A stretch of 64,000 bases of DNA. Source: Escherichia coli (GTDB taxonomy: Bacteria > Pseudomonadota > Gammaproteobacteria > Enterobacterales > Enterobacteriaceae). Each line of letters starts with the position of its first letter. Position 1 is the stretch's first letter. The DNA lies in assembly GCF_030384885.1 (NCBI RefSeq), contig NZ_CP128613.1; one strand, written 5' to 3'. Shown here piece after piece: positions 53,008 to 54,377 of this stretch. The notes beneath the pieces are model-generated. The model searched no databases. It saw only the letters and a program-made list of their open reading frames with translations, and was not told where the DNA came from. A program made the position numbers and the translations under genes.

Positions 53008-53027
53008 AACTTAGTTCGTTTTAAAGA

Positions 53028-53055
53028 TTCTGCAGACACTGTCTGCAGAATTCGA
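53028..53055. repeat. palindromic unit (core CAGACA-NN-TGTCTG) downstream of nanQ
   Basis: aattctgcagacactgtctgcagaatt, a near-perfect 27 bp palindrome; same family as three copies inside yhcG. Confidence 0.55.
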
Positions 53056-53066
53056 AACCGCTGAAA

Positions 53067-54194
53067 TTAACGGCGTCTATAGCCTTCCTCTAGCACCGCC
53101 TGTGTTCGAACGAGTTCATCCGCGAGTCGTTTTTCATCAGGTAGTTGCATCTTATATTCGCTTGCCAGAACGGTGTTAGGCAAACCTGCCAGCGCATAAT
53201 GCGCTTCTCCGGCTCCTTTCTCTGCACAGAGAACCAGACCGATGGGCGGATTTTCATCCGGTAGCGTCCAGTGCTCTTTGGCGTAGTTGAGATACATATT
53301 CATCTGTCCGGCATCGCTATAGCTGAATTTGCCCACTTTTAGATCGGCGATTAGCAGGCAGCGTAAACGGCGGTGGAAAAACAGCAGATCGACACGAAAC
53401 CAGTTGTCATCAATGCGTAACCTTCGCTGTCGACCAACAAAGGCAAAATCATCCCCAAGTTCCAGCATGAAATCCATCAGGTGATTGATCAGCGCCTCCT
53501 CAAAATCAGATTCTGAGTATTCATCTTTCAACTCCAGAAATTCGAGCACAAAGGGATCGCGTATCGCCTGTTGCGGAAGAATATGCATCTCGGCAGGAGC
53601 GTGTTGTTGCAGCATGGCTGATTTGTCATGTGACAGTAGTGTTCGCTCATAAAATTGGGTCGCAATTTGCCGTTCTAGCTGGCGAACAGACCAGCCACAG
53701 CGGAGCGTCTCTTTTTCATAAAAGCTGCGGGCGTCAGCGTTTTTAACGGAAAGTAGACGGACGTAGGTGGACCAGGGCAGGGGGAACGATTTGGCAGACA
53801 GCGTCTGCCAAATCTTTGCCGATGGGAATTCTGCAGACGGTGTCTGCGGAATTCCCAATGGTGTTAATTCGCCAGACACTGTCTGGCGAATTTCAACATG
53901 TTGAAAAAAGAGGTAAAAAAGCCTCATTTGGCGTAAGTTTTTTGCAGAGAACCCACGCTTATACCTTAGACTTAAATCCTTTGATAGTCGCTTGATTAGC
54001 TGCGCACCATACGCAGCTCTGGCCTCGCCACCTTGTTCAAATTCGACAATTCGTCGGCCAATTTCCCAGTATGTCGCGGTCATCAGCGCGTTAACACTAC
54101 GTACCGTTTCCGTCCTGGCGCTATCGACCAGATGAATAATGCCGTCGTGGATTTGCTGGTAGCCTGCTGTGGTTCCTTCTGAGAGCGATTCCAT
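53067..54194 (-). CDS. yhcG: DUF1016 / PD-(D/E)xK nuclease-superfamily protein YhcG
   Basis: 375 aa; family and K-12 length assigned from recall; contains an internal triplicated peptide motif encoded by palindromic DNA units. Confidence 0.75.
   Translation of the reverse strand: MESLSEGTTAGYQQIHDGIIHLVDSARTETVRSVNALMTATYWEIGRRIVEFEQGGEARAAYGAQLIKRLSKDLSLRYKRGFSAKNLRQMRLFYLFFQHVEIRQTVSGELTPLGIPQTPSAEFPSAKIWQTLSAKSFPLPWSTYVRLLSVKNADARSFYEKETLRCGWSVRQLERQIATQFYERTLLSHDKSAMLQQHAPAEMHILPQQAIRDPFVLEFLELKDEYSESDFEEALINHLMDFMLELGDDFAFVGRQRRLRIDDNWFRVDLLFFHRRLRCLLIADLKVGKFSYSDAGQMNMYLNYAKEHWTLPDENPPIGLVLCAEKGAGEAHYALAGLPNTVLASEYKMQLPDEKRLADELVRTQAVLEEGYRRR
53790..53897. repeat. three tandem palindromic units embedded in frame in yhcG
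   Basis: tttggcagacagcgtctgccaaa (53790-53812), gggaattctgcagacggtgtctgcggaattccc (53824-53856) and aattcgccagacactgtctggcgaatt (53867-53893); they encode the repeats IRQTVSGE / IPQTPSAEF / IWQTLSAK. Confidence 0.55.
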
Positions 54195-54377
54195 TATCTT
54201 TCCCTTTATATGGCGCAGTGTTGAATAATGGAATCAGCTATACGCCGGGCATCTGCCGGTAACAATCCAGATGTGCGTATTACATTGGTTTTCTTCAGAT
54301 TATGCGAGGCGCTTTCCAGAACGAAAGGAGAATTTCAGCGCCGACTCTTTTCTGAGGAGGCGGCGCTGGGACAGAGC

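Follow-up and report, generated by a model that had tools for sequence, protein, structure and literature searches.

Several described systems resemble the element reported here, a short hairpin within the coding sequence of yhcG, a gene of the DUF1016 family. It was studied in a 64,000-nucleotide stretch of Escherichia coli DNA (contig NZ_CP128613.1 of assembly GCF_030384885.1; i.e., the window), in which four palindromic units (U0 to U3) are found in the nanQ-yhcG-gltD region. The repetitive extragenic palindromic (REP) sequences and bacterial interspersed mosaic elements (BIMEs), with the REP-associated tyrosine transposases (RAYTs), share with these units the short palindromes and the covariation in their stems, and in both cases a hairpin may be linked to a nuclease-type protein whose gene is adjacent. 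REPs are, however, extragenic, are dispersed in hundreds of copies, have a GC-rich and imperfect consensus and are partnered with an HUH protein, whereas the YhcG units are present in 1 to 5 copies per genome, nearly all of them in frame within a single gene, which encodes a PD-(D/E)XK nuclease. Membership in REP/BIME was rejected because three of the four units are in yhcG and many dispersed copies are lacking. A miniature inverted-repeat transposable element (MITE) was also rejected, given that only a CA microhomology and no target-site duplication was found and that neither the position nor the frame of the unit changes between distant phyla.

The attC sites of integrons likewise have conserved ends and a variable self-complementary middle, are recognised as a folded single strand and bound modules, and a few of the DUF1016-type units adjoin tyrosine recombinase genes. 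In contrast to the YhcG-family element, which is 25–29 bp long, nearly perfect, centred on CA-S-TG (S is C or G) and placed mid-gene, attC sites are 57–141 bp long, carry RYYYAAC/GTTRRRY boxes and extrahelical bases and are found 3' of cassettes beside intI. As the units of the window are 25–33 bp long with ATT...AAT ends and the CA-S-TG centre, and no integron context is found in the window, membership in attC was rejected; the tyrosine recombinase association is limited to two free-standing cases (L091 and L093) and is not general. The mRNA operator hairpins of the phage MS2/R17 replicase and of the T4 autogenous repressors are also short stem-loops whose loop and base are sequence-specific while the stem is free to vary, and a protein acts on them to control the translation of a particular message; the copies in the 5' untranslated region (UTR) beside the ribosome-binding site (RBS) at two Clostridia loci (L049 and L053) share their layout. 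These operators overlap the translation start, however, while the YhcG element is normally located about 100 codons into the gene, is often in tandem and is a perfect palindrome in DNA.

In type III toxin-antitoxin systems (i.e., ToxI/ToxN), tandem short repeats of variable number are also carried on the transcript of a toxic defence nuclease. ToxI is, however, non-coding, is located upstream, forms pseudoknots and is cut by an endoribonuclease, whereas the YhcG repeats are simple hairpins within an open reading frame (ORF) for a protein with a DNA-type nuclease fold. Type III antitoxin repeats were thus rejected, as the yhcG repeats are coding and internal and the nuclease domain is akin to NucS, MGME1 and Cas4. 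Finally, quasi-palindromic hotspots of template switching share the near-perfect short palindromes, the copying of mutations from arm to arm and the hairpin-stimulated deletions, but they are local mutational events, whereas the present element keeps its position in a protein family, and the nucleotides of its loop and base, across domains of life. No description of a palindrome or hairpin in DUF1016/yhcG was found in the searched literature, in which the coverage of subscription journals is thin.

The palindromic units of yhcG

The four 25-bp palindromes of the window have the pattern ATT-NNN-CAGAC-NNN-GTCTG-N'N'N'-AAT (Table 1). An earlier note, made from the letters of this stretch alone, had placed one unit in the nanQ-yhcG gap and three in tandem in the yhcG frame, and all four were located there. 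It had also described a palindromic core common to the four units, which is correct, but its version of the core, CAGACA-NN-TGTCTG, has 0 matches; the true core is CAGAC-NNN-GTCTG, with an odd centre. This core has 4 matches in the 64-kb window where 0.07 are expected, and the full 25-mer pattern has 4 where 0.04 are expected, while no further copies of the unit are found in the rest of the window. Perfect (11/11) odd palindromes in the window are limited to U0, U1 and U3. The starts of U1, U2 and U3 are exactly 39 bp (13 codons) apart, and translation confirmed that the three units encode a triplicated motif (IRQTVSGE, IPQTPSAE and IWQTLSAK), as the note had read it. The variable arm triplets differ between the units yet stay complementary (CTG/CAG, TGG/CCA and CGC/GCG). 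The arms of U3 are perfectly complementary, and its stem reaches 13 bp (53866–53892); U2 has a single arm mismatch that is due to a synonymous Ala codon and in its extended form, GGGAATTC...GAATTCCC, covers 53824–53856. RNA folding of the units gave -15.6 to -23.0 kcal/mol (z = -4.1 to -7.7).

U3, found in all orthologs examined, is the ancestral unit. The segment formed by U0 and its 15-nt flank is in frame after the yhcG stop codon, shows 75% identity over 40 nt to U3 and its flank, and is translated in the read-through allele P0015. Thus, U0 is a relic copy of the 'FQxxEI-x-QT-x-S-x-E' hairpin segment just past the yhcG stop. Simple tandem duplication was rejected as the whole origin of the units, given that the spacers are divergent and the differences between the arms are compensatory. 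An intrinsic transcription terminator was also rejected, as a T-run follows none of the four units and three of them are mid-ORF. Comparison of the units with the Rfam covariance models yielded only chance-level matches to miRNAs and snoRNAs, far below the gathering scores, and no match was obtained at the hairpins of 10 other loci.

In the protein encoded by yhcG, Pfam identified a DUF1016_N domain (PF17761 and PF06250 family) at residues 19–184 (E = 1.1e-41) and a YhcG_C PD-(D/E)XK nuclease domain at residues 208–360 (E = 1.1e-55). The stretch occupied by the units is about 29 residues longer than the DUF1016_N model, and in the AlphaFold model residues 102–118 and 121–123 are coil with a predicted local distance difference test (pLDDT) score below 50. 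The hairpin-encoded peptide is hence a predicted disordered linker, in agreement with the inter-domain location proposed in the note.

Table 1. Coordinates of the units, alleles and related loci. Positions refer to the window unless a locus (L) is named.
Feature	Location	Strand	Description
U3	53867–53891	minus	first in gene order; ATTCGCCAGACACTGTCTGGCGAAT; codons I-R-Q-T-V-S-G-E
U2	53828–53852	minus	middle unit; I-P-Q-T-P-S-A-E
U1	53789–53813	minus	last in gene order; I-W-Q-T-L-S-A-K
U0	53027–53051	minus	in the 59-bp gap between the convergent nanQ stop (53007) and yhcG stop (53067)
U0 with 15-nt flank	53027–53066	minus	right after the yhcG stop codon, in frame: RRR*FQRFRILQTVSAES
78-bp (26-codon) segment with U1 and U2	53780–53857	minus	missing from 1-unit alleles
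yhcG ORF	53067–54194	minus	375 aa
HS/BL21-type replacement segment	L001 2031–2500		101-aa ORF annotated 'transposase' (WP_000639208.1)
Mosaic alleles	L003 2150–2330		proteins P0008, P0010, P0015 vs. P0034, P0035
Fifth unit	L135 3153–3177; L004 3532–3556		island border
Clostridia loci from metagenome-assembled genomes (MAGs)	L049 7500–8640; L053 560–1700		divergent DUF1016 genes with units in the 5' UTR, internal and post-stop
Units at a tyrosine integrase ORF	L091 351–560	minus	in-frame C-terminal tail of the ORF; one more just after the stop
Unit near another tyrosine integrase gene	L093 7624–7648		85 bp downstream of the gene
Unit near a MobF/TraI relaxase gene	L128 4921–4945		10 bp past the gene
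Abutting units, Legionellales MAG	L011 4089–4136		two perfect units sharing 2 nt (ATTCTCCAGACAGTGTCTGGAGAATTTGCCAGACACTGTCTGGCAAAT)

Covariation and conservation in the DUF1016 family

The pattern was searched for in one genome per species (100,044 species) with only ATT, CAGAC, GTCTG and AAT fixed, and at least 133 units in at least 120 loci were found. The counts from this and the metagenome scan described below are those of samples, and the sequences are phylogenetically non-independent. The matches listed were from Proteobacteria, Bacteroidota, Firmicutes, Acidobacteria, Verrucomicrobia, Planctomycetes, Cyanobacteria, Actinobacteria, Elusimicrobia, Gemmatimonadetes and archaea, with 2–3 tandem copies at several of the loci among them. 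With a broader family profile, 95 of the 133 units listed were inside DUF1016 ORFs; the 94 units identified with the first, enterobacterial profile were all in frame for I-x-Q-T-x-S-x-x, just before the LSWSHY/PLPWS motif (W-motif). No relatives were found when viral contigs were searched with the enterobacterial alignment.

Further analyses revealed that the two arms of the units covary. There are 29 distinct arm triplets among the 94 listed units, and in 63 of these units the free arm triplets are perfectly complementary, compared to 6.1 in shuffles of the partners (maximum 17 in 5000). At the five unconstrained pairs, 162 cells were changed on both sides, a value that none of 500 shuffles reached (66.5 ± 7.3), and the covariation score was 0.304 compared to 0.094 in shuffles. 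The complementarity often extends to the very centre, the innermost pair (k=1) being formed in 77% of the units. In terms of codons, if residue 2 is encoded by abc, residue 7 is encoded by G-c'-b' and residue 8 by a'-A-A, which yields the pairings L-AK, G-DQ, V-AQ, R-GE, F-GK, W-AK and Y-DK between residue 2 and residues 7–8. In a protein-level sample, 39 of 61 motifs fit this rule, compared to 15.7 ± 3 in shuffles. Homologues with other peptides at the site (i.e., IRDSLRPEL, ILHTLCGES and NCHTLCDKL) are still palindromic there, and different cores occupy the same site: PIRDALRLES is encoded by GATTCGAGACGCG-C-TGCGTCTCGAATC and EILHTLCGES by GATTCTCCACACG-C-TGTGTGGAGAATC. Because these homologues keep a palindrome with a different core, it is the peptide that follows the nucleic acid. 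Judged from this covariation, selection very probably acts on the nucleic acid, with the linker peptide (I-x-Q-T-x-S-x-E and its variants) following it.

The alternative that the repeat is selected as a peptide motif and is only incidentally palindromic could draw on the fact that I-x-Q-T-x-S-x-E is recognisable in many members and in the consensus of a diverse alignment. It is, however, scarcely credible, given that residue 2 covaries with residues 7–8 exactly according to the Watson-Crick complementarity of their codons, that wholly different peptides occur at the site while the palindrome persists, that synonymous positions are fixed and that the segment is predicted to be disordered. A dimer that reads duplex DNA was ruled out as an explanation, since the units of one gene have different stems, each of which is self-complementary.

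A second sample was drawn independently of the hairpin by scanning metagenomes for the C-terminal motif GQMxMYxNY, written as a degenerate DNA pattern, a scan that found at least 120 loci, 119 of the 120 listed being DUF1016. In 64 of the 79 genes of this sample a stem of at least 9 bp was found within 120 nt before the W-motif, and in 63 of 79 this linker stem was better than any stem elsewhere in the ORF. Most of the 15 hairpin-poor genes had the same motif with two mismatches; loss of the catalytic motif was considered for them and rejected, as all 15 retain it. A register test made with no selection for palindromes showed that 20 of 75 genes pair at -12 from the W-motif and 0 at the adjacent registers. 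The density of units bearing the family signature is 5.6 per kb in the linker and 0.004 per kb in distant flanks. A class, the 'DUF1016 intragenic hairpin', is proposed for an odd palindrome with at least 9 of 11 pairs, an ATT/AAT base and a CA-S-TG centre that is located no more than 120 nt upstream of the LSWSHY/PLPWS motif in a DUF1016 gene. U1, U2 and U3 show every one of these features, and this definition yielded 54 units in 9.6 kb of linker compared to 2 in 529 kb of distant flank. Conservation of the base (A)ATT/AAT(T) and of the centre CA-[C/G]-TG persists when the hairpin is in a different codon phase (QKANQWLAN), and the consensus is (A)ATT, 8 variable self-complementary nt, CA[C/G]TG, their complement and AAT(T). 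Thus, a hairpin with an odd centre and a stem of about 11–13 bp is built into the DUF1016/YhcG coding sequence at the end of the N-domain, before the LSWSHY/FPLPWS helix.

In Salmonella, Citrobacter, Pseudocitrobacter and Kluyvera, yhcG is located after gltBD, and one to three units were found at the equivalent place in each enterobacterial ortholog examined. An identical 25-mer, ATTCAGCAGACACTGTCTGGTGAAT, is common to Salmonella, C. koseri and Kluyvera and includes an uncorrected G-G mismatch. The hairpin is the sole nine-codon window of 339 in which all nine codons are identical among these three, compared to a background elsewhere in yhcG where 41% of the codons are identical at identical amino acids and 59% are changed. 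A compensatory pair is found in E. albertii, the arms of which are CAC/GTG compared to CGC/GCG in E. coli.

Variation within E. coli and units outside DUF1016 genes

Among 5,426 complete E. coli genomes, the number of units varies from 1 to 3. Approximately 60% of the matching genomes have three units, and approximately 10%, O157:H7 included, have one. The 1-unit and 3-unit alleles differ by a 78-bp segment with only a CA microhomology at its junction and no target-site duplication. In the HS/BL21-type allele, found in 726 of the 5,426 genomes, homology begins exactly at the outer edge of U1 (53789), and the region from the nanQ stop to that edge (~53008–53788), which contains the nuclease domain and U0, is replaced by approximately 480 bp. 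The 101-aa ORF of this replacement has no match in Pfam, NCBIfam, PHROG or PADLOC. In one strain a deletion fuses U2 to the flank of U3, and in another IS1 is inserted in the right arm of U1. Structural-variant breakpoints in E. coli thus fall on the units. A divergent E. coli allele has other arms (CTC/GAG and GTG/CAC) and retains their complementarity. In some E. coli alleles, a mosaic patch around the hairpins (~residues 84–135) matches Pseudocitrobacter, while the remainder is E. coli-like, a pattern suggestive of gene conversion or import confined to the hairpin region.

Units outside DUF1016 ORFs were found at few loci. At the two Clostridia loci, one unit is between the -10 box and the RBS, one is inside the gene and one is right after the stop. 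The gene bodies of L049 and L053 are less than 69% identical and their flanks 81–88% identical, with the homology continuing into the ORF for approximately 30 nt beyond the hairpins. In L049, the 3' unit resembles a hybrid of two stem types. At another locus (L221), a unit is located 36 nt upstream of the start. Free-standing units are also associated with two tyrosine integrase genes and a MobF/TraI relaxase gene, and two abutting perfect units in a Legionellales MAG are outside any recognisable DUF1016 ORF (Table 1).

The gltF-yhcADEF fimbrial island is absent from the strain of the window, in which gltD is 183 bp from the yhcG start (54195–54377). Strains that have the island carry a fifth unit, ATTCGCCAGACACAGTCTGGCGAAT, at the island border, 16 bp past the gltD stop; its arms are those of U3. 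At 54337–54368 of the window, just downstream of the gltD stop, there is a GC-rich inverted repeat, CAGCGCCG...CGGCGCTG, which is probably the gltBD terminator in island-less strains. In K-12, a transcribed antisense/divergent RNA, G0-10703, is reported to overlap the yhcG 5' UTR by 128 bp (PMC7967276); the yhcG 5' region corresponds to ~54195–54330 of the window.

Possible roles of the hairpin

A sequence search of the PDB with YhcG found no relative, and NCBIfam has no family for it. Foldseek showed that its C-domain resembles the NucS, MGME1, Cas4 and RecE nucleases, a comparison that holds for the nuclease domain only, as the N-domain was uninformative. Fold recognition has related the catalytic domain to archaeal Holliday-junction resolvases (PMC1189080). 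The profile of the phage-defence candidate PDC-S02 of PADLOC matches YhcG at residues 9–370 (best E = 4.6e-135), and a PDC-S02 representative was among eight candidates assayed against T4, T5 and T7, of which four protected (10.1101/2024.09.26.614923). Examples of DUF1016 are found inside Type I and Type II restriction-modification loci (PMC9881135).

The overall best explanation, which we regard as evenly poised, is that the conserved coding-sequence hairpin acts as a self-control operator for YhcG. One unit is ancestral, and the 2–3 copies in E. coli arose by old 39-bp tandem duplications and diverged by compensatory changes. The element would pair within one strand to form a hairpin, whether in the yhcG mRNA or in DNA that is unwound or extruded as a cruciform, and some factor would read its conserved base and tip; it is the conservation of these two parts that points to a specific reader. 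Given that the system consists of a single gene and is horizontally mobile, with representatives from Proteobacteria to archaea, the only constant partner of the hairpin would be the product of the gene itself, and since this product alone always travels with the gene, a self-contained operator is proposed. The reader would then be YhcG, and the hairpin would serve as an operator or decoy that limits its own expression or activity, whatever the promoter or operon. The copies at regulatory positions in L049, L053 and L221 speak for this view, as does the nuclease fold. Recognition of the hairpin by the product of its own gene for self-control is a tentative proposal, to which we give slightly less than even confidence. 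A further reading, that the hairpin is the cognate nucleic-acid ligand of YhcG and, as an RNA or cruciform decoy or operator, checks a toxic, junction-resolvase-like defence nuclease and/or drives the exchange of N- and C-modules, is possible and rather on the unlikely side; a ligand of its own carried by YhcG inside the coding sequence is an arrangement without described precedent. The fragility of the hairpins, as sites of deletion, duplication and replacement, would be a side effect.

Several points weigh against the self-control operator. That YhcG would bind the hairpin is purely our inference, and PDC-S02 is absent from the visible part of the list of the four protective candidates (10.1101/2024.09.26.614923). 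Extragenic copies are rare, with only 2 of ~76 genes having one within 300 bp of the ORF. On the sense strand, G-U mismatches in the stem do not outnumber A-C mismatches (11 vs. 27, or 9 vs. 15 in the 94-unit set) and so lend a sense-RNA structure no support, although strand inference from these counts was set aside as confounded, only certain synonymous transitions (CAG to CAA and TCT to TCC) being possible. The conserved positions all obey two-fold symmetry, a property that suits DNA no less than RNA. Lastly, template-switch repair of a quasi-palindrome could yield covariation without selection for function.

This last point is the basis of a rival in which the palindrome is functionless and self-perpetuating, being made symmetric again and again by intrastrand template switching in a linker that tolerates mutations. 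Template switching creates perfect stems, as in quasipalindrome mutagenesis; the linker is disordered and tolerates many peptides; pairing to the very centre is what copying would give; and the strand asymmetry expected of an RNA structure is missing. We consider this rival improbable, however, because one position is kept in more than 80% of the genes across bacterial phyla and archaea, the base (ATT/AAT) and tip (CA-S-TG) of the stem are conserved even in the other codon phase, the 25-mer of the three enterobacterial genera has been frozen together with its G-G mismatch while 59% of the codons elsewhere changed, and copies are found between promoter and RBS. More weight, although still well short of likely, is given to the hairpin as a recombination site in DNA that bounds exchangeable modules (i.e., N-domain, nuclease domain and flank) of a rapidly evolving defence gene or serves as an attachment site or target of an integrase, and that is cut by a recombinase or by YhcG. 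Consistent with it are the break in homology of the HS/BL21-type allele at the U1 edge, the deletion between U2 and the U3 flank, IS1 in U1 and the variation in copy number from 1 to 3; U0 and the fifth unit, the arms of which match those of U2 and U3; the free-standing units by tyrosine integrase and MobF relaxase genes; the placement of hairpins within, and at both ends of, the divergent Clostridia gene bodies between conserved flanks; and the enrichment of DUF1016 genes near the targets of programmed inversion (PMC9881135). No recombinase generally co-occurs with the family, however, and extragenic units are rare. The crossovers between L049 and L053 are not at the hairpins, since homology extends past them into the ORF, and the left boundary of the HS-type replacement is the nanQ stop and not U0. 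Given that palindromes are generic hotspots of rearrangement, breakpoints at the units do not demonstrate a programmed function.

The earlier note had also offered small mobile palindromic elements inserted into yhcG in frame. Such REP- or MITE-like elements would account for the variation in copy number between strains and for the few copies outside DUF1016 genes, but they are highly improbable, as the position and frame are identical in DUF1016 genes of distant phyla, including archaea, and no target-site duplication accompanies the 78-bp indel. The genome-wide search that the note had suggested for a dispersed family found no more than four places per E. coli genome that match a probe containing U0, those inspected being at the nanQ-yhcG-gltD locus, and none elsewhere in the window. 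A comparison of orthologs, which it had named beforehand as the evidence that could count against insertion, found the first unit at the same place in every one examined, and the mobile reading fails. Its other suggestion, a recombinogenic or regulatory structure, fits the results, as constraint on the stem is exerted at the nucleotide level and the units are where structural variants of E. coli have their breakpoints.

With 24,399 clusters at 50% identity (E ≤ 0.001), the uncharacterised DUF1016/YhcG family is very large. Its members often occur within restriction-modification or defence loci, and it is listed among the phage-defence candidates; the hairpin provides the first concrete handle on what its nucleases recognise or on how they are controlled. 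The units account for the recurrent truncations, copy-number variants and mosaic alleles of E. coli yhcG, including that of BL21. For annotation and evolutionary analysis, caution is called for, as both the 'repeat peptide' and the residues by which the protein exceeds the Pfam model arise as by-products of a DNA or RNA structure. A hairpin that dictates the amino acids of a linker from E. coli to archaea is a nucleic-acid function layered on a coding sequence, and if YhcG does carry its own ligand, part of the protein sequence would be forced to be the translation of a palindrome.

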